64,000 nt of DNA from Candidatus Altimarinota bacterium (lineage in GTDB: Bacteria > Patescibacteriota > Gracilibacteria > JBDHUY01): the NCBI GenBank assembly GCA_039809385.1, contig JBDHUY010000007.1, positions 33,494 to 97,493 of the forward strand, written 5' to 3'. This document shows, one piece after another, positions 4,056 through 48,286 of the stretch; within the stretch, counting starts at the first letter, position 1; each line of letters starts with the position of its first letter. The translations under genes and the position numbers were made by a program. The notes below the pieces were generated by a model. The model saw only the letters and a program-made list of their open reading frames with translations. It searched no databases and was not told the origin of the DNA.

Positions 4056-5381
4056 ATGTCCCAAAATTCGATCTCGCTCGAAAAAGCTCTGGAACTTTTA
4101 CAGACCTATCAACAAACTCGCCAGTACAAAAAAAGTATTGCGCTGGCCTCTACTATCTTGCGAACTGTTCCGGATAATGTCACCGTGCTGCGCTTCTTTC
4201 AGGAAGCCCGGCTTCAGTACGCGCTTAGCAAGAGCCAGATGCTGACCCGAGTATTTCAGGGAATCATGGCCGTTTTGCTCGTGCTGGCCGGGTTGTTTGC
4301 CTATCAGTGGTGGGCCGTATTTCCGACGTTTGAAAAAACTACAGCTTCGCACGAGGGAAAGCTGATCAGTTTGATCAAAGAGAACGGTACTTTGCGAGAA
4401 AAAAATGACCAACTAACTGGGCAAATTACGCTGTTTCAAAATCAAGTATCGCTGTTGACCACAGGCTTACATGAAGTCTCCGAAAAACTGCTGCGCAAGC
4501 GTGAAGAAAATCCGGATGAAAAATTACAACAAATCGCAGCCCTGCAAGTAAAGATAGACGAACAGAACAACCAGATTCAGCAACTGATCAAACTCAGTGT
4601 CGAGCAAGAGAAAAAGAAACCGACCGCTTTTACGTATGCGCAGGATATTCGTAATTTCTTGATCGTGGGCGATCATGGCGGTCTGACCGATACAATCATG
4701 ATCGCCTCGGTCAACCCGTCGCTCAAAACCATTTCGCTTATTTCGGTGCCGCGCGATCTGTATATCGACGGGCGGAAAGTGAATGAAATTTACAAAGCCT
4801 ACGGCCGCGACACGCTCCAAGTCTACTTGCACGACATTACCGGACTGACGATTCAGCATTATCTGAAAGTCGATCTGGAAGGTTTTGTGAAAGTTATTGA
4901 CTTAGTGGGAGGTATCGATGTGAATGTTCCGAAAGATATTGCAGACAAACAGTATCCCACCGGCGACGGCAATACCGAAGAACTTTTCATTGCCAAAGGC
5001 TGGCAGCATTTTGATGGAACGCAGGCGCTCAAATATGCCAGGACCCGCCACGGTGACAGCGATTTCGAGCGAGCTAAACGACAGCAGCAGGTAATCGAGA
5101 TTACGCTGGACAAGATCCGCGCCCTGGGAATCGCAGACGTAGCTCAGCAGCTCGAACTGGCCAAGACTATGCTTGCCAGTGTCGAAACCGACGTGAACGT
5201 GTTTCAAGCTCTCGGCTTCTATCAGGATTACCAGCAATTTACTATTGAACGCGGGAACGTCATTTCCACGTCCAATTTTTTGTATCCTTCCAAAACCGCG
5301 AATAACGACTATATCGCTTTGCCGACTGACACGACGTACGAAGCGATCCAAAAGTATGTGTATGATCTGGTTATGCGTTAG
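4056..5381 (+). CDS. LytR-CpsA-Psr (LCP) family protein with N-terminal TM helix and coiled coil
   Basis: TDTIMIASVN, ISVPRDLY, ALKYARTRH, DSDFERAKRQQQV; TM segment IMAVLLVLAGLFAYQWW followed by a heptad-rich stalk. Confidence 0.9.
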   Translation: MSQNSISLEKALELLQTYQQTRQYKKSIALASTILRTVPDNVTVLRFFQEARLQYALSKSQMLTRVFQGIMAVLLVLAGLFAYQWWAVFPTFEKTTASHEGKLISLIKENGTLREKNDQLTGQITLFQNQVSLLTTGLHEVSEKLLRKREENPDEKLQQIAALQVKIDEQNNQIQQLIKLSVEQEKKKPTAFTYAQDIRNFLIVGDHGGLTDTIMIASVNPSLKTISLISVPRDLYIDGRKVNEIYKAYGRDTLQVYLHDITGLTIQHYLKVDLEGFVKVIDLVGGIDVNVPKDIADKQYPTGDGNTEELFIAKGWQHFDGTQALKYARTRHGDSDFERAKRQQQVIEITLDKIRALGIADVAQQLELAKTMLASVETDVNVFQALGFYQDYQQFTIERGNVISTSNFLYPSKTANNDYIALPTDTTYEAIQKYVYDLVMR

Positions 5382-5398
5382 CTTCATTAATCGGTTTT

Positions 5399-6682
5399 AT
5401 GGCAAACGAAATCTCCTCTAGCGATACAAACGAGCAGTCACCCGCTTCTCCAGAAAAAGCAAAAAACCTCTTATTGCTGCGCCTAGAGCGTCAAATGCCG
5501 TATTTGAGAGAACTGGTTCGCTTGATCGAAGAAAAATCGAATATTGAAATGTCTCCATCCGAAATTGAATTTCAATTTCAGGAATTTTATCGTGATATGG
5601 AGCAACGGCTTGCTTCCGGTCAACTGCGGACTGAGCTTGAACTGTATCGTAACCTCTCGTTGGAACGGGTGCGGTTTAATGACAGCATTAAAAACGTTGT
5701 CTCCGAAGATCCGGATATTGATATCACAGATCTGTTTGAGGAGGATACCAAATTCGATCAGTTAAGTGACTTTGAGGCAAACCCAAGTATTCTTTTCTTT
5801 ACAAAGATAGAAAAGATGCTCGCAGTTCTGCTCGAAAAAAACAAACTTGTTTCCTCTCTCTATAGAAATCGCGACAGTCTCCCAGCAAAAATTTACGAAC
5901 TTGTGCCGACATGGAACGGTATAGATATATCCAGTTTCGAAACACACTTTTCAGCTTTCGGGGTGACATTTATCGTGCCGGAGGATATTTTTCGACGTAT
6001 TAAACCCGGCTCGGAAGGTACTCATTATCGCAATACGCCGTTTTCATTTGTGAAACAACGTCCCGATCTCGATTCTATGGCAAAAACGCAGAAACACGAA
6101 GAGTTGCATAACCTGATGGAAGGAATCTTCCAAAGTTCCGGCTATTCCATAGAGCATTTCAGTCATAAATTACAACATCTGATAATGTTGTATAAAAATT
6201 TTGGAAAGAGGATAATGTTTCGGAAAAACTATAAAGAATGTTTACAATATCTTAATCGGTTGCATGAAGAAATGGTAGCCAACCTGCCGGGCTTTTTGTC
6301 TGATATCACAGCGTCTGTCCCAGCAGTTCTTTTGGAGTTCTCTACAGCCAAGAATTACTTTGATCAGTCATGCGATATTTTTGACCGTGTTATAAAAGAT
6401 AATGGACAAAATCAAGATGTAAAAAGATTTTTGGAAGGGGGAAAAAGAACATTTGTGTCAAGATTTAGGCGTATAGAAAATAACGTACGAGCACTCTTTG
6501 ATCTAATAGGTATACTTCAGAAACTCTCGGCAGGTGATCAACATATTCAAGATATCTCGACCGACATATATATTCTCTTGTTCTATCTTCGGCCGCTCGA
6601 ATACCATTATATTATTCCTTATCTGCGGCATGCTTATCCGCATATTTTTGTGAGAAGCAGGCCTGTTCCCGATGTGGATTGA
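5399..6682 (+). CDS. Hypothetical protein with HExxH motif (possible Zn metalloprotease)
   Basis: 427-aa ORF with HEELH and a downstream LHEEMV; no family recognised. Confidence 0.6.
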   Translation: MANEISSSDTNEQSPASPEKAKNLLLLRLERQMPYLRELVRLIEEKSNIEMSPSEIEFQFQEFYRDMEQRLASGQLRTELELYRNLSLERVRFNDSIKNVVSEDPDIDITDLFEEDTKFDQLSDFEANPSILFFTKIEKMLAVLLEKNKLVSSLYRNRDSLPAKIYELVPTWNGIDISSFETHFSAFGVTFIVPEDIFRRIKPGSEGTHYRNTPFSFVKQRPDLDSMAKTQKHEELHNLMEGIFQSSGYSIEHFSHKLQHLIMLYKNFGKRIMFRKNYKECLQYLNRLHEEMVANLPGFLSDITASVPAVLLEFSTAKNYFDQSCDIFDRVIKDNGQNQDVKRFLEGGKRTFVSRFRRIENNVRALFDLIGILQKLSAGDQHIQDISTDIYILLFYLRPLEYHYIIPYLRHAYPHIFVRSRPVPDVD

Positions 6683-6973
6683 TGTCGGTTGAAAGTATGT
6701 CGTCAAATGCGTTTCGTAATGTGTGACAAACCCTTCGGAACACCACTCTGTAACTTTCTATATCGGAATGCGTTGATGCCATGTTTGCAGTATCTCCGGT
6801 TCACATAGTAACGGTACTATCCATTTTCTTTCGACAACTTCCGGATTTTCGTGTACAGTGTCTGGGCTTTAGAAAAAAAGTCCAAAATTAAAAAATGTAA
6901 AGTGATACGATCATTTTTCACTTGAGACTTTTTACTTTACATTTCAGATTTCATTTCCTGTCTAACCTTCCTT

Positions 6974-8746
6974 ATGTCATCCCTTCGCAATATCGCTATT
7001 ATCGCTCACGTCGATCACGGTAAAACTACACTGGTAGACGCACTTCTCCGCCAGTCCAAAACCAACCTCGGTAAACTCGAGGAGTCCAAAGATCTGATCC
7101 TGGATAACAACGACTTGGAACGCGAACGCGGGATTACCATATTTTCCAAAAACGCCGCGGTCCGCTACAACGAAGTAAAAGTCAATATCATCGACACTCC
7201 CGGACACGCCGATTTCGGTGGCGAAGTAGAGCGTGTCTTAAAGATGGCCGACGGCGCGTTACTCTTGATCGACGCCCAGGAAGGGCCGATGCCCCAGACC
7301 CGTTTCGTGCTCAAAAAAGCCCTGGAAAAGGGACTCAAGGTGATCGTTGTTATCAACAAAATCGACAAGCCCAATGCACGTATCGAGTGGGTGTTAGAAA
7401 AAACCTACGAACTCTTTATCGATCTGGGCGCTAACGACGAACAGATCAATTTTCCGGTCATTTACGCGGCGGCCAAATTGGGCAAAGCCGACACCCACAA
7501 AGATCTGGAAAAAATGCAGGATATTCGCCCTCTCTTTGATACCATCTTGCAGGAAATCCCGGCTCCGGAGCAAAAATTGGAACAGCCGTTCCAGATGCAT
7601 GTGGTAGCTCTTTCGTACGATAATTTCAAAGGAAAAATTGCCATTGGGCGAATCTATCAGGGGTCCGTAAAACAAGGCCAATCGGTGATGCATATCGACC
7701 GTCAAGGCAAACAGGCGGTGCAGAAAATCACGGCGCTGATGACGTTTGAAGGATTGGCCCGCATGGAAACCGAGACGATGGGCGGGGGCGACATTGCGGC
7801 TGTCGCCGGTTTTGACAGTGTCAATATCGGCGATACGTTGTGCGACAAAGACAATCCGCAACCCTTGCCGCCGATCGATATCGAACCGCCTACGGTAAAA
7901 ATGACATTCGGCGTAAATAGCTCCCCGTTTGCCGGTCGGGAAGGCCAGTGGTGCACCTCGCGCAACTTACGCGAACGCTTATATCGCGAATTGGATAAAG
8001 ACGTAGCTCTGAAAGTCGAAGACGGCAAAAGCGCCGACGAGTTCATCGTTTCGGGCCGCGGCGAACTTCATTTATCGATCCTGATCGAAACGATGCGCCG
8101 CGAGGGATATGAACTGCAGGTTTCGCGTCCGGAAGTTATTATGAAAGAGGAAGAAGGCGTCTCAAAAGAACCCTACGAAGAGATCTGGGTGGAAGTTCCC
8201 GAAACGTATTCGGGAATGGTGATTGAACAAATGGGCATGCGCAAGGGCGAAATGCTCAACATGCGTTCCGAAGGCGTGACCACCCATTTCCATTTTCTGA
8301 TCGCGACACGCGGACTGATCGGTTACCGCAATGAATTGCTTGTTTCTACCCGCGGTACTGGCATCCTAAACTCCTTATTTGCCGGCTACAAAGCCTTGGC
8401 GGTTGGTATCGGCAGTAACCCGCACGGATCGCTGGTGGCCTTCGAATCTGGCAAGACGAACACCTACGGTCTGTTAAATGCCCAGGAACGCGGTATTCTC
8501 TTCGTCGGCCCGGGCGAAGATGTGTATAAAGGTCAGGTGGTCGGCGAAAACGCCAAACCTGAGGATCTGAGTGTCAATGTCTGCAAAACCAAACAGTTGT
8601 CGAATATGCGTTCCAAAGGCGACGGGACGAGCGAAGCGCTGACACCTAAACGGCTCGTCAATCTCGAACAAGCGATCGAATATATCGGCGACGACGAGCT
8701 GGTTGAGGTCACGCCCAAAAGTATCCGGATGCGGAAAAGGGGATAG
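6974..8746 (+). CDS. typA: Translational GTPase TypA/BipA
   Basis: [41 protein letters not shown]-terminal [16 protein letters not shown]. Confidence 0.97.
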
Positions 8747-24505: not shown

Positions 24506-27500
24506 ATGAAAATTGAATTTTCGCGTATGACCTTTTTCAAAAGAATATTTCCGGTCTTGTTGTTGCCGATTTTATTGATCTCGTTTTTGGTATATCCTGC
24601 GCGTCTTTTACGAGCCTCTACCGCGCGCGTCGTTATTAACGAGATCATGTACAATCCGGTCGGGACCGATACCAATCGCGAGTGGATAGAACTCTATAAT
24701 ACTTCCACCGACTCTGTGGATTTGACCGGCTGGAAATTTCTCGAATCGGGTGTGGCGCACGGCTTGCATGCTGTCCAGGGCGGAACGCTCTTGCCGGCTG
24801 AGGGCTATGCCGTGGTAACCGGCAGCGGAGCTTTGTTTTTACAAGAGTACCCCACATTTTCGGGATTGCTTTTTGATACTTCTTTTTCACTGGTCAATAC
24901 CGGTGAACCCTTGACGATCAAAAACGACGAAGGCGGTGTGAGCGATACCCTTTCCTATACCAATCTTGCAGCTGACGGGAATGGAAAAACATGGGAACGG
25001 AACCTTCAAGACGCTTTGACGGAAAGTATTGTCATCGGCGGCACGCCCGGTCAGAGAAACAGCATAGTTCCGGTTCCCGCGGGTAACGCGAACCAGAATA
25101 TCGATCAAGGTAACGCGAATATGTCCTCTCAAAATACCAACACTAACAGTCCTGAACCTAATACCAACGAGAATGATGGACAGGGGAACCACAACTCTAA
25201 TGCCAATACTCCCGTTTCCGAGCCAATATTCAATGTGAATAGCAACGATTCTCCCCTTCCTGCGAACCAGAATGTTAATTTTTCTCTTCCCAATGCCAAT
25301 AGTGATGGGGACACGAATCAAAACTCCCAGGAAAATGCCAATGTTTCTTTTGGGAACGACAATCAAAATTTTGCAAATTCTAATGCAAATATCTCTTCCA
25401 ACCAGAATGTCTCGATAACCCCTGTACTCACGCGCGGTACATTGCTTATCAACGAAATTCTCATACAACCCGAAAGCGGCGCTAAAGAGTGGATCGAGCT
25501 TTATAATACGAGCGGAGAACCGGTCGATCTCGCGCAGGTCACGCTGCGCGATAAGGGCGGTACTGCTAAAGTGCTCTCCGGAATCATCGAGGGAGAATCA
25601 TACTTTGTTCTCGAACCTGCCCCTGTTTCGCTGAATAATGACGGCGATCAAATCTTTCTCGAAAATAAGATTTCCGGAACTCTCATCGATACGGTAGCGT
25701 ATGGAAGCGGTACTTCCCTGATGCCTTCGGCTATAGGTAAAAGTCTGGGACGCTATCCGGATCATGCCGATTCGCAAGTGTCGTCAGCAGATTTTCACAG
25801 CTTCTCTATCCCTACCAAAGGGATGCCCAATATAGTAAATAATGCTTCTCCCGTGGCCGTTATTACTCTGCAATCGCCTTTCAAAACTAGCGGAGTTGCC
25901 CCTTTTTCGCTCAACGCTACCGGAGAGGAAAGTTCCGACCCCGACCAGGATCCCCTTTCGTTTCGCTGGGAATTTGGCGACGGTACCGAAAATAACGAAG
26001 AAAATCCCGCTGCCAAGCGTTACGAAACTCCCGGGACGTATACGCTTCGTCTTACGGTTACCGATACCTGGGGAGAGAGCAATACCGCCGAACAGGTGGT
26101 AACGGTTTTCAGCAAATCGCCGTCGAATACCGGAAGCAGTACAGGGGCGTCGAGTTCTTCTTCCTCACCGGTCGCTACCGCCTGTACTCCCCGTGACACC
26201 AGCGGAAAAATCCGTATAACCGAAGTGCTCCCCAATCCTGTCGGGATCGATACGAATAACGAATTTATCGAAATCGCCAATCTGGATACCCGTTCGATCA
26301 ATCTGTGCGGATGGCAAGTTGACGATGCCGAAGGAGGTAGTGCTCCGTATTCGATTTCTTACGATCTTGAGCTTGAACCGGGAGAATATCTGGCTTTATA
26401 CGCGCAGCAGACCAAATTGTCGTTGGGCAATACGTCTGATGCGGTACGACTCTTCACTCCGCAAAAAATCGTAATCGATTCTGTAACCTACACCAATCCG
26501 CCCGAAGGCAAAAGCTGGTCTCTAAAAAGAGTACTGGCGCGCCATTCTTCCAGACTCGTGGCTTCCACCAACCTGCTGATCGGCATGGAAACGAACGATA
26601 ATGGTAACTCGGACTGGGAATGGGTAACTCCCAGTCCGGGACAGCCGACTCCCGTGTCGGTACAAATGTCCGTTTCGGACGGAGTTATCATTTCCGAGCT
26701 TTTTACCGACCCCGACGGTGCCGATGAGGAAGCTGAATTTATCGAATTACAGAATATCTCGGAGCATGAAATAGATCTTACCGGTTGGCAGCTCTCCGAC
26801 GGATCGTCTAGTTATACCTTTCCGGAAGAAACTATTCTCGAGGCTCAGGCTCTGCGTGCTTTTTATCGTCCCGTGACCCACATTTCTCTCAATAATACAA
26901 CAGATGCCATCGAACTGTTCAACCCCAATCACGAGGTTATCGACAAAATTATGTATGAAAAGTCCGAACCGGCCAAAAGTTTTAGTAGGTTTGTCAATGA
27001 TCTATCCTATGTCCAAGATTCGGTCTGGGAATGGTCTCTCCCGACTCCGGACCTGCCCAATGTCAGAATCCCTCTCTCGGTAACTCCCGACCCTCCTGCG
27101 GGAACATACCGTGAACCGGTACGTGTCTCTTTTTCATCTAATAAAACCGGAACAAAAATATTCTATGCTTTTTCAGGTGATACTACTCCCGACGACTATT
27201 TCGAATATACGACTCCTTTCCTGCTCGAAGCCAGTACCGAACTCTGGTTTTTCGGACTCACGAGCGAAAATGACCGTACGGGTTTGGTGATGGCGGAATA
27301 TCGTATTGATCCGTCTCTTAGTGCAGGGACAGGGTCTCTTATTACCACTTTGGGGGATCTGGCGGTCAGCGAAATCTTTCCAGATCCCGGCGGTAAAGAT
27401 GCCGGTCGGGAATGGATCGAAGTATATAACCGTTCCGATACTGCGGTTGATCTGAACAATTTTACTTTTACGAATAAAAAGAAACAGCGTTATACGGTTG

Positions 27501-28582
27501 ATGATTCTTTGACTATCGAGCCGGGCCGATATGCTGCGGTTTTTATCGATTCCGAAAGCTTCTCGCTCACCAATACCGAAGATACGATAACCCTGCTGGA
27601 TGCAGCCGGCGATGAGCTCGACCGCGTTCATTATCGGGACGTCCGTACCGATCGCAGCTTTGTTCGGGGAGAAGATTTTTCTCCCGAACTTTTTCCGAGC
27701 GATTTTCCAACTCCCGGTGAATCTAATATCCGGTTTGTTCTGATACCCCTCGAACAGGATCGCGACCGCGATCTCATTAAAGACGATCTGGAGCGGGAGC
27801 TGCGAACCGATACGGCACGTTTTGACACCGACGGCGATCATATTGCCGACTTCTTTGAATTTCTAATAGGTTCCGATCCTCTGGTCAGTGATGCCGACGA
27901 TGCCAAAACTGACCGTTACGAGGAGTATTTGAAAAATTTTGTGACGCTTACCTCTTCCACGACGAAAAGCGGACTTTTTTTACAGGGAAAAAGTTTGCCG
28001 AATAGCTCTTTGCTGCTAAAAATCTTTTCCGCGCTTGAGCCGCAGGAAACTTTTACCATCAAGACCAGTGTAAAAAGTGACGGTACCTACAGTGCTAAAC
28101 TGACACGCGCGTTGCCGTCAGGACTTTTCGATGTACAGGCGATTATTACCGATCCGGAGGGCGTGAAAAGCCACCAAAGTCGGGCGGTTTCGTTTGTGCT
28201 GGAAGATGATTATGTTCCTCCTGTTGCCGCTACCAAGACCAAAGCCGCTTCCTCAAAAACGAAGCCTTCAACCGGGAATCAGAATACAAACGTAAACGGT
28301 CTTGCTTTAGGGAATGAAAATCAAAACTCGCCCCTGAACGGCAATGAAAACCTGAATACGAATGCTTCCCTCAACTTTTTGGAGGAAACTATGCTTATGG
28401 GTACTGATCAGGAAAACGACAATACTAACGCCTCTGTGCAGACGGCGTTGGCGGCGGATCTGAAAACCGATTTACCCGATAGTTCCGGTATTCCCTTGTG
28501 GTACTGGATTCTGGGGGGAGTGTTGCTGGCGGGGGGAGTAGGAGCGGTATTCTTCTGGTGGAAACCCGGTAAAGAATCATGA
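24506..28582 (+). CDS. Large surface protein: five lamin-tail domains, PKD, chitobiase/Fn3-like, Ca-binding DxDxD repeats, C-terminal TM anchor
   Basis: Repeated (I/V)(N/T/S)E...P......E(W/F)IE(L/I/V).N motif x5; PKD WEFGDG..YETPGTYTLRLTVTD; DTDGDHIAD; Asn-rich linkers; C-terminal LWYWILGGVLLAGG. Confidence 0.88.
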   Translation: MKIEFSRMTFFKRIFPVLLLPILLISFLVYPARLLRASTARVVINEIMYNPVGTDTNREWIELYNTSTDSVDLTGWKFLESGVAHGLHAVQGGTLLPAEGYAVVTGSGALFLQEYPTFSGLLFDTSFSLVNTGEPLTIKNDEGGVSDTLSYTNLAADGNGKTWERNLQDALTESIVIGGTPGQRNSIVPVPAGNANQNIDQGNANMSSQNTNTNSPEPNTNENDGQGNHNSNANTPVSEPIFNVNSNDSPLPANQNVNFSLPNANSDGDTNQNSQENANVSFGNDNQNFANSNANISSNQNVSITPVLTRGTLLINEILIQPESGAKEWIELYNTSGEPVDLAQVTLRDKGGTAKVLSGIIEGESYFVLEPAPVSLNNDGDQIFLENKISGTLIDTVAYGSGTSLMPSAIGKSLGRYPDHADSQVSSADFHSFSIPTKGMPNIVNNASPVAVITLQSPFKTSGVAPFSLNATGEESSDPDQDPLSFRWEFGDGTENNEENPAAKRYETPGTYTLRLTVTDTWGESNTAEQVVTVFSKSPSNTGSSTGASSSSSSPVATACTPRDTSGKIRITEVLPNPVGIDTNNEFIEIANLDTRSINLCGWQVDDAEGGSAPYSISYDLELEPGEYLALYAQQTKLSLGNTSDAVRLFTPQKIVIDSVTYTNPPEGKSWSLKRVLARHSSRLVASTNLLIGMETNDNGNSDWEWVTPSPGQPTPVSVQMSVSDGVIISELFTDPDGADEEAEFIELQNISEHEIDLTGWQLSDGSSSYTFPEETILEAQALRAFYRPVTHISLNNTTDAIELFNPNHEVIDKIMYEKSEPAKSFSRFVNDLSYVQDSVWEWSLPTPDLPNVRIPLSVTPDPPAGTYREPVRVSFSSNKTGTKIFYAFSGDTTPDDYFEYTTPFLLEASTELWFFGLTSENDRTGLVMAEYRIDPSLSAGTGSLITTLGDLAVSEIFPDPGGKDAGREWIEVYNRSDTAVDLNNFTFTNKKKQRYTVDDSLTIEPGRYAAVFIDSESFSLTNTEDTITLLDAAGDELDRVHYRDVRTDRSFVRGEDFSPELFPSDFPTPGESNIRFVLIPLEQDRDRDLIKDDLERELRTDTARFDTDGDHIADFFEFLIGSDPLVSDADDAKTDRYEEYLKNFVTLTSSTTKSGLFLQGKSLPNSSLLLKIFSALEPQETFTIKTSVKSDGTYSAKLTRALPSGLFDVQAIITDPEGVKSHQSRAVSFVLEDDYVPPVAATKTKAASSKTKPSTGNQNTNVNGLALGNENQNSPLNGNENLNTNASLNFLEETMLMGTDQENDNTNASVQTALAADLKTDLPDSSGIPLWYWILGGVLLAGGVGAVFFWWKPGKES

Positions 28583-28665
28583 ACTTAGAACGATCCGAGG
28601 GGGTAACTGCCTTGATCTCATAGGTACATCGTGTATACTATAAGTACTTTATATAACGCTTTTTC

Positions 28666-29175
28666 ATGCCTACGACTACCGCAAAACCTGACTACGAGCG
28701 TGCCAAAAAGAAAGCCGAAGAACTTCTGGCGAATTTTAAAATCGAGGAACCGATCGTACCTGTTTTTGAAATTGCCAAGACACTTGGGCTAGAAGTCAAA
28801 ATTGTAAGAATGCCAGAAAAATTGCTCAGCGTTTCTGGATTTATCGATATACCGCATAAGATTATTTATGTTAACTCGGATGATTCTCCTGCCAGAAGGC
28901 TCTTTACTGTTGCGCATGAATTGGGGCATTATTTATTGAACCATAAGCCGGGGGAGATTGAGGTGCTGTTGAGACTCACGACGGTTGAAACGACTCCTAT
29001 TGAGAAAGAGGCGAACTGTTTTGCGGCCAACCTTCTTGTTCCTGAAAAAAAATTGCTGAATGTCATGAATACCTATCATCTGACACGTAAGGAATCTGAA
29101 ATTCTGGCAAAACTCTTTGGTGTATCAAATGAGGTCATCATTAATAGATTACATCATCTTTCATGGAAGAGATAA
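28666..29175 (+). CDS. ImmA/IrrE family metallo-endopeptidase (copy 1)
   Basis: RLFTVAHELGH and EKEANCFAANLLVP motifs. Confidence 0.9.
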   Translation: MPTTTAKPDYERAKKKAEELLANFKIEEPIVPVFEIAKTLGLEVKIVRMPEKLLSVSGFIDIPHKIIYVNSDDSPARRLFTVAHELGHYLLNHKPGEIEVLLRLTTVETTPIEKEANCFAANLLVPEKKLLNVMNTYHLTRKESEILAKLFGVSNEVIINRLHHLSWKR

Positions 29176-29531
29176 CTAGGCAGAGACCCGACCTTCAAGA
29201 TGCGCTATCTCTTATTGAGAATGTCAAACCTGTGGCAAGCCCTTCTCTGGAAGGGTCGAATCTTGAATTTGATAAAGCAAGAATCGAGCTTTTGATACGA
29301 GAAAAAGATGAGATTATCAGAATGCGAAGAATGTGGTCCATAACTATACTTGTAGCCATTATTGGCATTACGGTCTTCGATATTATCGTTATAACTTTGT
29401 TGGGTATTGGCCTTATGAGATTTTCCGAAGGTTATATCGTTCCGGCATTTATCGCAGAGAGTTTGCTAAAAACACTCGGTTTGGCTGCGATTGTAGTAAA
29501 CTTTTTGTTTGATCATAAATCTTTGAGGTAA
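29163..29531 (+). CDS. Small two-TM membrane protein, partner of ImmA/IrrE copy 1
   Basis: Overlaps the peptidase 3' end by 13 nt; charged N-terminus, two hydrophobic helices, ends IVVNFLF. Confidence 0.75.
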   Translation: MEEITRQRPDLQDALSLIENVKPVASPSLEGSNLEFDKARIELLIREKDEIIRMRRMWSITILVAIIGITVFDIIVITLLGIGLMRFSEGYIVPAFIAESLLKTLGLAAIVVNFLFDHKSLR

Positions 29532-29550
29532 TAGTGTTCATGCTTCGCCT

Positions 29551-30012
29551 ATGAACTCATTTGGCGCCTTTGCGATTATCTTTGACGATGCGGGACGAGT
29601 TCTTTTCGCTCGTCGTCGAGACTACGATTTGTGGAACCTGCCGGGCGGAGGCAGCGAAGAAGGCGAGGCGCCCGAGGAAACGGCAGTACGAGAAGTACGA
29701 GAGGAAGTCGGTTTAGAAGTGGAGATAGACAGACTCGTCAGTCGCGATTTCCATCGTAAAGAGCATAAACCGGTTTATACTTTTTTGTGTCGCATCATAA
29801 GGGGTGTTCCGGTCGAAACCGACGAATCGCGGGAGGTAAGGTATTTTACGTATACAGAAATTCCGCCCAATGCCGCTATTTCGCATGTCTGGCGCGTGCA
29901 TAAGGTTTTGTCCAATATATCCGTAGCAGAGCCTCCTCCGCGCTCCTTTCCCTCTGCGATTGAACTTCTGCAACAGGGAGAGGCGGTGAACTGGCATCTC
30001 TACCTCGATTGA
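29551..30012 (+). CDS. NUDIX hydrolase
   Basis: Nudix box GGSEEGEAPEETAVREVREEVGL. Confidence 0.92.
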   Translation: MNSFGAFAIIFDDAGRVLFARRRDYDLWNLPGGGSEEGEAPEETAVREVREEVGLEVEIDRLVSRDFHRKEHKPVYTFLCRIIRGVPVETDESREVRYFTYTEIPPNAAISHVWRVHKVLSNISVAEPPPRSFPSAIELLQQGEAVNWHLYLD

Positions 30013-30116
30013 ATCTTTGTTTCCCTAAAGTCTTGTCCTATTCATTCTTTTCATAATCTCCTCTGGCTCAGGGACGAATCTTGGTTATAATAGGCACGAT
30101 TCTTCCCTTTTTGCCC

Positions 30117-43183: not shown

Positions 43184-43483
43184 GGGAATGGACGAAAGGT
43201 AGTATTTTTTGTCACAGTATGCCCCTGAAGGACACGACAAGCATTCTACCAAACATGGCTGTTTATGCAATAAGAGGATGGAGGGCAGGCTTTTGAGACA
43301 TCCTTTTGAAGAGAATAATGTGAATCTGTCACAAATTACGGCTTTGACTATTGAAAAGTACAATACCAGAATACTGTTTTAAAAAGCCATAAACTCTGAT
43401 TTCCTTTACTGCCTCTTCTTTTCAACCAACCCGAAAGGGGGTATGATTTTTGTGAGGATAATTTATCCTTTTTTTATACAGCT

Positions 43484-44641
43484 ATGGGCGAGTCTTCCTT
43501 GAAAGAGACGCCTATACCAGCTCCATTTGATGTGGTTGATCGCCAGGATACTCCTCCTGTCCATGCTCCTATTGCAATCAATAAAAAGGATCATCTTTTA
43601 CCTGTTGAAATATTTTCATCTCCAGAGCAGGCGTCTAAGTTGGCGTTTCTCACAAGGCGGACTGTGGCTTTAATGTTTAACTATATTAAGCGAGCCTCCA
43701 ATATGGAAGTTCCTACACGTTTACGGTCGGTGCGTTTTTCTGTGAACACTGATACTAGCGAAATTGAAAAGATATCCCGTAGTAAACCTTCTCACAATGC
43801 GTCCGAATCAAATCAGTATAAAACTATTGTCATGGATGGAGACTTTTTTTCTAAACGTATTGAGGAATATCAAGGTCTCCTGAAAAAGAAAGGTCAGATC
43901 ATACTTATGGTACCTTTTGAGGATGACAGATATAAATCAGATTTTCTCGCCGGTCTCCTGCATGCAGAAATAGTCGAGAACATAGTTCTTATTCGAAGTT
44001 ATTATGTGTCATTTAGCGATGTGGGAAGAAATGTTACCGAGAGTCTCTTGCGTGCTCTTATACAACATCCTGAAGTTGGCAACAAAACCATTATAGGTTA
44101 TATAACTCAAGGGTTGATTCGGGAGGCAGCTCAAGGTTGTAGTCGTCAGAACTACAGCGAGCGTATGGAGACTTCATTTAAAAAATACGACTTCTATGGA
44201 ATGGGACCAATTTTAGATATGTCAGAATATAAGTGGGTAGAGCTTATTAATAAAGAAAGGGGCAGCTTTATGCTTCAACTTGAACCGTTCATCCGGTTCG
44301 CAGATCCAGAACATCGAAAGATTGCAGAAACCTTTCTACAGAAAAAAATAGAACAGCATTTGCAAGCCTCTCTACAAGAGGTAAAAGTACAAACCTTCAA
44401 TGCAATAACGGAAAGTAGTGAAATAATTCTTCCAGATCCTGTAAATTCTGAAGATGGTTTACCAGACCTACCTTCCCTCAATCAAGTTGATGAAGTTACT
44501 GCTCAGTCTCCCGGCAGCACTGCTTCTACTACAGTAAATTCTTTGAAACATGTGGCTAATCGTATTACAGCTGCTATAAAAAAAATTACTGGCTCTCTTC
44601 CCAATCCTTTTACCAATGACGATAGTAATAGTAGTACCTAA
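43484..44641 (+). CDS. Hypothetical protein (AT-rich, orphan-like)
   Basis: 385-aa ORF opposite in orientation to its neighbours; no motif recognised. Confidence 0.6.
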   Translation: MGESSLKETPIPAPFDVVDRQDTPPVHAPIAINKKDHLLPVEIFSSPEQASKLAFLTRRTVALMFNYIKRASNMEVPTRLRSVRFSVNTDTSEIEKISRSKPSHNASESNQYKTIVMDGDFFSKRIEEYQGLLKKKGQIILMVPFEDDRYKSDFLAGLLHAEIVENIVLIRSYYVSFSDVGRNVTESLLRALIQHPEVGNKTIIGYITQGLIREAAQGCSRQNYSERMETSFKKYDFYGMGPILDMSEYKWVELINKERGSFMLQLEPFIRFADPEHRKIAETFLQKKIEQHLQASLQEVKVQTFNAITESSEIILPDPVNSEDGLPDLPSLNQVDEVTAQSPGSTASTTVNSLKHVANRITAAIKKITGSLPNPFTNDDSNSST

Positions 44642-44653
44642 ATGTGATAGCCT

Positions 44654-45811
44654 TTACTGACGAGTAATAATTCGCCTGATCCCCGGCTGAATTCGTACCA
44701 GTACCTCATACGGAATGGTTTCTTCTTCTTTTGCGAGCCCTACAATCGAATTCTTTTCTTTTGAAAGAGGAGAAATTACTTCAACCAGATCTCCGACTGC
44801 TACACGGTCATTCCCCACATCCAAACAGGTCAGATTCATACAGACTCGCCCGACGATGCTTGCCTTGATCTCCTTATCGCCCTGCCGAATCCGCAATATT
44901 CCCTTCCCCGAAAGTCGCCGATCCAGCCCTTCCGCATACCCGAACGGAATAACCGCGATCGTTGAGGCTCTCCTCGCGGTAAACGTTTCGTTATAGGAAA
45001 CGCTTTCTCCCACCTTGAGCTTCTGTATTGCTACCACCCGCGACGTCACCCGTAAAGCCGGTTGCAACTTCCGGGTTTTTGTATACAACGGACTCTGCGC
45101 ATCGAACGGCGAGTATCCGTAGAAGGCCAGCCCGGTACGAAAGGCGGTAAGACGGCTATCTTTCAGCCAAAACGCCGCTGCAGAATTCCCCAGGTGTACG
45201 AAAGGCAGTTCGTACCCCTGTTGTTTCAGCCAGTCGAACGCTTCAAAAAACCGTTCCACTTGTTCCCGGTTCAAATCCGAAACTTGTTCAGCTGAAGCCA
45301 GATGAGAACATATCCCGACAATATCGCACCGCCGAAGCAGCGCTTTATTCTCTTGAAAAAAGTAGGCAAGATCCTGAATACCCTCCCGATGCATCCCGGT
45401 ATTGAGAAAAAGGTGTACTTTCGGTTTGCGGTGAAACGAGAGTAGCGCTTCTAGTGTCATTCGGTTGTACACGCAAAACTGAGTCCGCCACGCGCGGAAA
45501 AACTTGTACGATGACAGAGCCGCCTCTCCCAGCACCAGCACGTCTTTTGATCCCCGATCATACACCTTCTGAGCTTCAGGCAAAGAATCCACTACCAGCA
45601 GAGGCACGTTACTTTTTTCCAGAATCTCGACGACCGGCTCGATCCCGTGGCCATACGCGTTCGATTTAAGCACCGGCAATATGGCGGCGTGTGGCTGGAG
45701 AGACTGAAGATAACGTAGGTTTTCCAGCAACGCAGTCCCGTTGATCTCAACCAGATTAAGCGGCGTATAGCTCAATGTTCTTTTTTGACGAAACCACCGG
45801 AATAGTTTCAT
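44654..45811 (-). CDS. alr: Alanine racemase
   Basis: VLKSNAYGHG PLP-Lys motif, NTGMHREG, GYAEG, GRVCMN, TIPYEVL. Confidence 0.95.
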   Translation of the reverse strand: MKLFRWFRQKRTLSYTPLNLVEINGTALLENLRYLQSLQPHAAILPVLKSNAYGHGIEPVVEILEKSNVPLLVVDSLPEAQKVYDRGSKDVLVLGEAALSSYKFFRAWRTQFCVYNRMTLEALLSFHRKPKVHLFLNTGMHREGIQDLAYFFQENKALLRRCDIVGICSHLASAEQVSDLNREQVERFFEAFDWLKQQGYELPFVHLGNSAAAFWLKDSRLTAFRTGLAFYGYSPFDAQSPLYTKTRKLQPALRVTSRVVAIQKLKVGESVSYNETFTARRASTIAVIPFGYAEGLDRRLSGKGILRIRQGDKEIKASIVGRVCMNLTCLDVGNDRVAVGDLVEVISPLSKEKNSIVGLAKEEETIPYEVLVRIQPGIRRIITRQ

Positions 45812-46191: not shown

Positions 46192-46563
46192 TTACTTCGG
46201 CGTAGGAAAAAGGTGTTTTACGGCTATACTCAGCATAACACTTATTTGTGTTAGTGTTGCGGTGACCAAAATACGAAAATTCCATTCTTCCAACAAAAAT
46301 CCCCAGAGACGAAACCCCTGGAATGCAGAAAACATGAAAATGATGATAGTTTCGCCAACCAGCAAAAAAAATAATCGATTCAGGGTAGTCTTTTTGAGCT
46401 TGATATCTTGCTGTAACGCTTCGTTCTGAAGTCGTCTTCTCTCCGCAATCACGTCCGGAATCCGTAATGGAGCACCGCGTTGAGGAGTCACGTTGGCCGG
46501 AGTTGCCTTTTCTACTATACTTCTGAGCTCTGAGATAATATGCTCTTTTTTAGGGTCTTGCAT
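46192..46563 (-). CDS. Small two-TM membrane protein, partner of ImmA/IrrE copy 2
   Basis: 10 nt downstream of the peptidase; charged N-terminus, two hydrophobic helices, ends IAVKHLFP. Confidence 0.75.
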   Translation of the reverse strand: MQDPKKEHIISELRSIVEKATPANVTPQRGAPLRIPDVIAERRRLQNEALQQDIKLKKTTLNRLFFLLVGETIIIFMFSAFQGFRLWGFLLEEWNFRILVTATLTQISVMLSIAVKHLFPTPK

Positions 46564-46573
46564 ATCGCAGAAT

Positions 46574-47101
46574 TTAGGCAGTTATAAGATTCAATTTTTC
46601 TAAGCGTATACTCATGGCAACGATCGATACGTTAAAAATTCGGGCGCATTCTTCCACACTTCGAAATGTCTCCCAAGCTTGCTTTACCAGCTCAGACGGC
46701 ATAATAAGTTCCGCAGCAAAATTATTCGCTTCGGTTTCAATGCGGGAGTACTCCTGATTGTCCAATCGAAACAGGATCTTGGATTCAAAGTTCGTATCTT
46801 TATCGATCAGTGCCTCTTCCTGCTTTATCGTGTCTGCATGCATAAAATAGTGCCCCAATTCATGTGCTATTGTAAAATATTGTCTTGTTCTTGGCTTGGT
46901 TTCATCTACCAATATAGAAAAAATATTCGTATTTTTATCAAAAAGAATAGCACCGGAAACTCCTTCAGGTAATTTCAAAACCGATATCTGCAAGTCGGGG
47001 CACGCGGATGATATTTTTTCAAATGGAAAGGGTGATAATCTTTCGGAGTTATATTTCTGACGTACTTCCTCGGCTTTGAGAAGAATGTCTGTAAATTGCA
47101 T
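46574..47101 (-). CDS. ImmA/IrrE family metallo-endopeptidase (copy 2)
   Basis: RQYFTIAHELGH and ETEANNFAAELIMP motifs. Confidence 0.9.
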   Translation of the reverse strand: MQFTDILLKAEEVRQKYNSERLSPFPFEKISSACPDLQISVLKLPEGVSGAILFDKNTNIFSILVDETKPRTRQYFTIAHELGHYFMHADTIKQEEALIDKDTNFESKILFRLDNQEYSRIETEANNFAAELIMPSELVKQAWETFRSVEECARIFNVSIVAMSIRLEKLNLITA

Positions 47102-47213: not shown

Positions 47214-47264
47214 GCTATCGCGGGATGTCGAGTCCCGTGTGTCTGCCAGTTCCACCATGACGGC
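47214..47264 (-). pseudogene. Degenerate partial copy of tRNA-Leu (5' 51 nt)
   Basis: 47/51 identity to 48133-48183; anticodon loop changed (CTCAAAA to CTCGACA); no T-arm or 3' acceptor strand. Confidence 0.8.
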
Positions 47265-47313
47265 TTGGGTATCTTCGAGGAAAGTTTGATACTTGATTTT
47301 TAACCTGCGATTT

Positions 47314-48096: not shown

Positions 48097-48183
48097 TGGT
48101 GCCGTCGGAGAGAGTCGAACTCTCATGATATTGCTATCGCGGGATTTTGAGTCCCGTGTGTCTACCAGTTCCACCACGACGGC
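48097..48183 (-). tRNA. tRNA-Leu(CAA)
   Basis: GCCGTCG/CGACGGC acceptor stem, anticodon arm CGGGA-CTCAAAA-TCCCG, long variable arm, GTTCGACTC T-loop, encoded CCA. Confidence 0.95.
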
Positions 48184-48286
48184 ATACAGTTTCTTGAAGA
48201 AAGTCTGTAACTCTCTATTTTCTCCAAGCAGACAAATACTAGTCAAAACTCACAAAATCGTCAAACCGAAAAAAAGTATTTGGATA

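Follow-up and report, generated by a model that had tools for sequence, protein, structure and literature searches.

Two diverged pairs of an HTH-less ImmA/IrrE-type peptidase and a small two-helix membrane protein in a Candidatus Altimarinota genome: probable toxin-antitoxin-like or anti-phage modules related to RosmerTA

Peptidases of the M78 (ImmA/IrrE) family are repressor-cutting switches, and in the toxin-antitoxin (TA) system RosmerTA they are antitoxin domains whose mechanism is still unclear. The accessible part of Makarova et al. (2009, PMC2701414) treats COG2856 solely with Xre partners or fusions. According to the available portion of the NetFlax study (PMC10440598), node D25, the ImmA-protease domain, acts as a hub among antitoxins: it has partners from many toxin families, shows enrichment in phage defence and is the same as RmrA of RosmerTA; proteins of this node often carry an N-terminal helix-turn-helix (HTH) domain. 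Here, we analyzed a window of 64,000 nucleotides (nt), this term meaning the whole stretch of DNA under study, from Candidatus Altimarinota bacterium (assembly GCA_039809385.1, contig JBDHUY010000007.1, positions 33,494 to 97,493), which carries two copies of a two-gene module encoding a stand-alone M78 peptidase and a small protein with two transmembrane (TM) helices. The ImmA-domain antitoxin design is already in print; what is new is a minimal, HTH-less form of it with an unannotated membrane partner. RosmerTA is the described system that these modules appear to resemble most in function, but they lack the features by which its members are recognized.

The first pair is located on the plus strand, where the genes encoding the peptidase pep1 (28666-29175; 169 amino acids, aa) and the membrane protein TM1 (29163-29531; 122 aa, C-terminal IVVNFLF) overlap by 13 nt. 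In the second one, on the minus strand, the genes of pep2 (46574-47101; 175 aa) and TM2 (46192-46563; 123 aa, TM1-like layout, C-terminal IAVKHLFP) are separated by 10 nt. Both peptidases contain the motif AHELGH; pep1 belongs to clade T1 and pep2 to clade T2 of the tree described below, and TM2 represents a second partner family. The open reading frame (ORF) listing bears out the architecture, coordinates, spacings and C-terminal motifs given in the first-pass annotation. The pairs are also AT-richer than their flanks, as had been claimed (GC content of about 0.40 versus about 0.50): the GC content is 0.405 and 0.398 in pair 1 compared to 0.47-0.52 alongside, and 0.405, 0.438 and 0.343 in pair 2 compared to about 0.50 alongside. 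The Pfam analysis of the peptidases and flanking ORFs agrees with the earlier statement that neither locus has an XRE/HTH partner, and no repressor or defence operon was found among the ORFs flanking either pair.

Both peptidases exceed the cut-off (22 bits) of the Pfam family PF06114 (Peptidase_M78), pep1 with 84.6 bits (E-value 6.3e-24, residues 38-163 of 169) and pep2 with 73.8 bits (1.4e-20, residues 55-167 of 175), and they are the sole M78 matches in this genome of 1.87 Mb in 26 contigs. They share 31% identity (E-value 8e-15), and in pep2 HExxH is followed by an insert of about 15 residues. Alignment A4, made of 27 unfused peptidases, shows H84, E85, H88, E113, N117 and F119 to be invariant (27 of 27) and E115 and A116 to be nearly so (at least 90%). 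The downstream glutamate is, we assume from the IrrE structures, the third zinc ligand, and the peptidases look catalytically intact. They thus have the domain, the HExxH motif and the downstream glutamate of the family and no adjacent or fused XRE-HTH substrate, and therefore are M78 members devoid of the usual partner.

The window peptidases share with ImmA/ImmR of ICEBs1, IrrE/DdrO of Deinococcus and CapP/CapH of cyclic-oligonucleotide-based antiphage signalling systems (CBASS) and other defence operons the PF06114 domain, the HExxH plus E..EAN site and a partner encoded next door. CapP is their best PADLOC match (pep1, 5.6e-26 on positions 3-151 of 242; pep2, 1.6e-30 on positions 9-152 of 242), and the closest solved structures are those of CapP (7t5t, 5.9e-12) and IrrE (3dte, 3.7e-10), with the peptidase domain alone being aligned; the solved CapP (291 aa) is matched at residues 81-174 alone. 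However, the partner in these three systems is a soluble XRE-HTH repressor encoded upstream, whereas in the window it is a membrane protein with two TM helices encoded downstream. Furthermore, as far as the accessible text of a 2026 preprint (PMC13228613) goes, IrrE and CapP are about 290-300 aa long, with HTH and GAF domains forming a groove for single-stranded DNA (ssDNA), and ssDNA sensing by CapP requires the groove between peptidase and GAF domains. By contrast, Pfam and PADLOC scans found neither an HTH nor a GAF domain in pep1 or pep2. The window modules also lack the regulated downstream operon; neither the peptidase-HTH-GAF architecture of the CapP/IrrE subtype nor a defence or repair operon controlled through a cleavable repressor was found at these loci.

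TM1 and TM2 both consist of a charged N-terminus of about 55 residues followed by two hydrophobic segments, as judged from hydropathy. AlphaFold2 predicts helices at residues 11-19, 28-81 and 92-115 of TM1 (predicted local distance difference test, pLDDT, 87.9) and at residues 5-19, 35-83 and 93-118 of TM2 (pLDDT 71.2), i.e. in both cases a short helix, a long helix running from the cytoplasmic part into the first span, a short loop and a second membrane helix. Since basic residues precede the first span and follow the second one, the positive-inside rule suggests an N-in/C-in hairpin for both proteins. In TM1, the N-terminal part is variable and the juxtamembrane helix is conserved (alignments A2 and A3). 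Prediction of the pep1-TM1 complex from their own alignments (A4 and A2) gave scores of 0.32, 0.26 and 0.27 relative to a mark of 0.32, in a run without controls, and favours neither view. A fold search of the TM1 AlphaFold2 model in the PDB returned no match. Three candidate identities were rejected: (i) DUF5510 for TM1 (20.8 bits, below the cut-off of 27) and (ii) DUF3671 for seven of the 30 TM2 relatives (below the cut-off), both treated as chance resemblance among proteins with two TM helices, and (iii) DUF2335 (PF10097), the nearest named family (at 0.79-0.80) among Protein Atlas neighbours that are otherwise unnamed clusters, which was dropped as scans of all A2 and A5 members gave no DUF2335 match.

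The pairing is conserved elsewhere, a check that the first-pass annotation had proposed. For TM2, a sequence search found eight relatives, and 22 genome loci emerged from a scan in which each species was represented by one genome; all of them (22 of 22) have a peptidase sequence directly upstream, intact in 21 of them and split over two frames in L030. In 18 loci, a Pfam-confirmed PF06114 ORF ends between -8 and +8 nt from the TM gene; L011, L019 and L023 have intact upstream HExxH ORFs of 176-206 aa, detected by tblastn and ORF listing and not run through Pfam. For TM1, no word-sharing relatives were found, and an exhaustive HMMER search returned 187 cluster representatives (E-value ≤1e-3). 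A metagenome scan gave 21 TM1-family loci, from which three weak partial ones without credible ORF (L053, L055 and L056) and one at a contig end (L047) were set aside. An M78 ORF is directly upstream in 16 of the 17 assessable loci (gaps of -31 to +14 nt), 14 of these ORFs being Pfam-confirmed and the other two (L038 and L052, near-copies of L037 and L051) not having been sent to Pfam. The exception, L043, is a 1-kb contig with no peptidase upstream; its positions 411-905 encode a TM1-like domain in frame behind a ribosomal protein S6 domain, an arrangement that might be explained by chimerism, by loss of a stop codon or by a genuine fusion. Additional pairs are found in the genomes G073 (TM2-type) and G022 (TM1-type). 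Across loci, the peptidase gene always comes first, the intergenic distance ranges from -31 to +14 nt, and no HTH domain or partner was found in the flanks of either family. Pairing of the two genes is thus far beyond chance.

Two observations on individual TM2-type loci should be mentioned here. A tandem second module in L010 was discarded, the upstream "HExxH" ORF being a DUF6585 membrane protein with a chance HELWH. In L013, the module lies beside a second, different M78 system (positions 5035-7385, minus strand) made of a Beta_protein (PF14350) gene and a gene encoding a 398-aa M78 protein.

A survey of 401 genomes of the same phylum (0.7-2.1 Mb) revealed matches to the peptidase hidden Markov model (HMM) in 39 of them (E-value ≤1e-10). 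Among the 27 further M78 loci that were examined (L061-L087), eight have an ORF of 112-148 aa with two TM helices directly downstream, one has an 87-aa ORF with one TM helix downstream and 13 are directly preceded by an XRE-HTH ORF (scoring above Pfam cut-offs in 11 cases and weakly in two), whereas none has both a two-TM and an XRE-HTH partner; the remaining loci have neither partner, and no peptidase ORF was found in L083. Therefore, the TM protein takes the place of the HTH repressor of ImmA/IrrE/CapP systems, on the other side of the peptidase gene. The highest-scoring peptidases of the survey are those with TM partners. The partner family of L061 and L062 resembles the TM1 family (hhalign 90.6%, HMM E-value 3e-5), and the other extra two-TM partners have the architecture alone in common with TM1 and TM2. 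Some M78 plus two-TM pair is present in about 11 of the 401 genomes. The modules are mostly found in Patescibacteria. Four TM2-type loci (L011, L019, L023 and L024) come from metagenome-assembled genomes labelled Pseudomonadales, Gammaproteobacteria, Nevskiaceae and Bdellovibrionales; the gene order of L023 (ABC, ABC-2, peptidase, TM, Dus) is that of the Saccharimonadales locus L027, which suggests mis-binning, wrong labels or transfer.

The maximum-likelihood tree of the peptidases (32 rows, no M78 outgroup included) falls into two clades with a support of 100/100 each: the partners are of the TM1 type in all 12 rows of one and of the TM2 type in all 20 rows of the other. Since peptidase clades match the partner family, the pair diverged as a unit; and since there is one split, with kin sharing labels, this reflects one ancient divergence of the whole module rather than repeated co-evolution. 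The resemblance of the two membrane proteins that the first-pass annotation had pointed out is supported at the level of profiles alone: TM1 and TM2 are not linked by BLASTP, and searching the genome of the window with the HMM of one family does not retrieve the copy of the other, but profile-profile comparison by hhalign does relate them, with a probability of 83% using nine TM2 sequences and of 91.6% (E-value 8e-7, 86 colinear columns) using 30 TM2 sequences (alignment A5). These columns cover the juxtamembrane helix, both spans and the C-terminal [IV]V.[FH]LF motif. In controls, reversal of either alignment gave 0.3-0.5% and 24 column shuffles gave at most 0.8%. Remote homology of TM1 and TM2 is therefore likely, not proven.

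A search for longer proteins found a natural fusion, P0160 (323 aa; a single record on a 2.3-kb contig), in which an M78 domain (residues 10-173; 41% identity with pep2, E-value 2e-38) is joined to a TM2-like domain (residues 239-317; 56% identity with TM2, E-value 2e-27). This fusion supports a direct functional link between the M78 and TM proteins, with little weight as it is one record. It is also the sole result that bears on direct binding, and the peptidase and the TM protein may be physically linked.

Like RosmerTA, the window modules are two-gene operons encoding an M78/ImmA-type zinc-peptidase protein and an unrelated small protein of variable family, with a patchy accessory distribution, and at least one RmrT is membrane-localized and depolarizing: in the available text of PMC10440598, the C-terminus of RmrT-D5 from Gordonia phage Kita is membrane-localized and depolarizes the membrane. 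The accessible part of a preprint (bioRxiv 10.1101/2022.05.11.491447) describes deletion mutants devoid of rmrA as not transformable, possibly because of toxicity. However, RmrA models have 357-400 positions and comprise an HTH plus a peptidase, whereas the window peptidases have 169 and 175 aa and no HTH; the gene order is fixed in the window modules, with the peptidase first; and their range is mostly Patescibacteria, which NetFlax barely sampled. In the part of the NetFlax supplement that was searched, the D25 pair is found in none of the seven Saccharibacteria genomes listed. Neither the RmrA architecture nor a known RmrT family next door was found in the window, and comparison of TM1 and TM2 with PADLOC, including its RmrT models, returned no family at E-value ≤1. 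RmrT families being diverse, TM1 and TM2 are still compatible with an undescribed RmrT. More generally, the modules have the layout of type II TA systems: small co-directional genes that are close or overlapping, a conserved pair, varying contexts and patchiness.

Other small membrane proteins provide a further comparison. Toxins of the Panacea (PanA/PanT) systems and hairpin toxins or holins are also small proteins with one or two TM helices, with a cytoplasmic neutralizer, and PanT-D11 is reported as membrane-depolarizing in the available text of PMC10440598. However, the antitoxin family of Panacea differs; no sequence relation was found, no comparison aimed at DUF4065 systems having been made. 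Identity with holins or phage lysis genes is not supported either, as there is no match in phage records or viral contigs and no adjoining endolysin in the window. In the largely non-subscription literature searched, no description of a pair made of an HTH-less M78 peptidase and a small two-TM protein was found. The first-pass annotation had called the module unnamed, which is right for the TM families (no Pfam, PADLOC, PHROG or NCBIfam model at or above the cut-off) but not for the design principle, which is in print for RosmerTA and in NetFlax. Since the membrane partners lack any model in these four collections, annotation pipelines report just an "orphan ImmA/IrrE peptidase". The functional part of that annotation, i.e. 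that the TM protein is the partner or substrate of the peptidase in a TA or abortive-infection module, is plausible given the published precedents of RosmerTA and of the NetFlax ImmA antitoxin hub.

The modules have an accessory character: each TM family is strongly matched in only two of the 401 genomes, the window's own included. The related genome G001 (same family, 86% complete) keeps the stretch from the lamin-tail domain (LTD) protein to MraY, with a different 212-aa ORF in place of pep1, TM1 and the NUDIX gene. Flanks vary among loci: many are housekeeping genes, and some belong to defence systems or mobile elements, encoding DNA methylases, a Type ISP restriction-modification enzyme, an OLD-like AAA_21/TOPRIM protein, DUF3800, HNH or DUF2726 proteins, a replication protein, a coupling protein of a type IV secretion system or a superinfection-immunity protein.

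Overall, we regard the unit as a probable toxin-antitoxin-like or anti-phage module and as a relative of RosmerTA. As for its mode of action, we tentatively propose, as a scheme that may well prove wrong, that the hairpin is a membrane toxin restrained by its cognate peptidase, most likely via cleavage. What we infer here is that the hairpin is toxic to the membrane, that it is directly recognized or cleaved, in which direction control is exerted, and that phage defence may be involved. Each pair would be complete in itself and able to move horizontally, as a two-gene module of the RosmerTA type in which the TM protein, an N-in/C-in hairpin in the cytoplasmic membrane, would be the effector, as a permeabilizing or depolarizing toxin, and the peptidase, translated first from a shared message with probable translational coupling, would be the controlling partner. 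The peptidase would recognize the cytoplasmic juxtamembrane helix or the N-terminal region of its own TM protein and keep it harmless, most likely through cleavage; recognition of the juxtamembrane helix, which is amphipathic, is plausible by a route taken from the accessible text of the CapP preprint (PMC13228613). If the supply or activity of the peptidase failed (phage infection, module loss or stress), intact TM protein would accumulate and the cell would stop. This genome would thus harbour one module from each of two anciently diverged, probably non-cross-reacting, subfamilies.

Several points weigh against this toxin scheme. The peptidases are devoid of the HTH of RmrA, whose models match them on the peptidase part alone (1e-15 to 1e-4, e.g. 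positions 137-267 of 380), and the TM proteins match no RmrT model. In P0160, the first zinc histidine is replaced by arginine (ARELGH) and the glutamate of E.EAN by glutamine (EQQAN), so that proteolysis is not possible for its fused M78 domain. Housekeeping genes make up most of the flanks. Searches of 50,697 phage records, 72,556 plasmid records and a viral contig collection detected neither TM family, an unusual result for a mobile gene of a defence or TA system. Within the Saccharimonadia-type clade, the position of the module is fixed, on the same strand and directly behind export genes, namely ABC_tran plus ABC2_membrane (ABC-2 exporter) in six loci (L015, L020, L023, L025, L027 and L028) and HlyD plus MFS in one (L018), a place that looks like that of a stable chromosomal function; this adjacency could reflect shared synteny or a functional link to export. 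The export neighbours, the housekeeping flanks and the lack of matches in phage, plasmid and viral collections, together with the structural role of the M78 domain that the substituted P0160 suggests, would fit a pair unrelated to toxicity, i.e. a membrane-linked regulatory or quality-control device in which the TM protein anchors or regulates the peptidase, or is a tethered signalling substrate, and the peptidase has other targets, for example linked to the adjoining export systems. We nevertheless find this somewhat unlikely: a housekeeping device should be wider and more stable than pairs found so patchily, in about one genome in 36 of the phylum sample, and the low GC content, the indel between conserved flanks, the two diverged copies in one genome and a context that varies outside one clade speak against it as well.

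The toxin scheme also presupposes that the peptidase neutralizes rather than activates, and toxicity, binding and cleavage in this module are proposals. The control could be reversed, the TM protein being harmless as made until a signal-triggered peptidase clips its N-terminus and frees a pore-forming hairpin, which would make the peptidase the activator of an abortive-infection or suicide module. ImmA, IrrE and CapP are indeed signal-activated site-specific cutters of a neighbour-encoded protein (accessible parts of PMC13228613 and PMC2701414), the TM protein fills the role held elsewhere by HTH substrates, little or no variation is seen at the catalytic residues of the 27 unfused peptidases, and a variable N-terminus ahead of a conserved juxtamembrane helix would suit a pro-region that is removed, next to a site of cutting or docking that stays fixed. 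However, the GAF domain and interdomain groove that form the ssDNA sensor of IrrE/CapP are missing, and therefore no trigger can be named; P0160, with its substituted zinc ligands, could never be activated; overlapping or close genes with the peptidase first correspond to the antitoxin-first order, the commoner one in TA systems (available text of PMC10440598); and the peptidase protein of RosmerTA acts as antitoxin (accessible part of bioRxiv 10.1101/2022.05.11.491447). Such an activator therefore seems unlikely to us. That the two genes have no functional link, or that the small ORFs are not real genes, is hardly credible: a single metatranscriptome contig at the pair 1 locus does span the NUDIX gene only (29592-29793), but order and spacing are kept in about 40 independent loci, 187 cluster representatives and strongly conserved cores exist for the small proteins, the peptidase tree indicates co-divergence and one fused form (P0160) is known. 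More broadly, small membrane hairpins might form a second class of substrates of ImmA/IrrE-type peptidases, as protease-gated pores whose juxtamembrane cleavage would switch an effector without transcription, with at least three related partner families (T1, T2 and T3), and might serve these ultra-small bacteria as a main means of suicide or anti-phage defence, a generalization that we consider improbable at this stage.

If the restrained-toxin proposal is true, a bare peptidase with a 120-residue hairpin, free of any DNA-binding part, would be the simplest system for distinguishing between binding, constant cleavage and triggered cleavage as ways in which an ImmA-type peptidase controls a toxin. 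Patescibacteria, episymbionts with tiny genomes whose TA and immune repertoire is poorly charted by present tools, would thereby gain a defence or addiction module.

Pair 1 lies between the gene of a 1358-aa LTD/PKD surface protein on one side and those of NUDIX and MraY proteins on the other side. The 1358-aa protein (24506-28582) has five lamin-tail domains, a PKD domain and a C-terminal membrane anchor, and its homologue holds the same place beside MraY in G001. DNA nearly identical to 28400-30100 is present in public metagenome runs from activated sludge, hot spring, soil and aquaculture, and one public metagenome contig spans the end of the LTD gene, pep1 and TM1. Scans for promoters and terminators gave site counts not above those of shuffles.

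The genes next to pair 2 encode a Cu-oxidase_4 family protein on one flank, and a tRNA-binding protein and an alanine racemase on the opposite one. Just upstream of the pep2 start (47101), an 80-nt segment (47214-47293) is 79% identical to 48133-48212, i.e. to the 5' half of a tRNA-Leu(CAA) gene (48097-48183, minus strand) plus 29 nt upstream. ARAGORN and Rfam do not call a tRNA in this segment, which may have been left behind by a tRNA gene or by an integration event, or may provide the pep2-TM2 operon with a borrowed promoter. A second low-GC stretch of the window (43200-44800, about 0.395) contains a 385-aa ORF (43484-44641) that belongs to no Pfam family.

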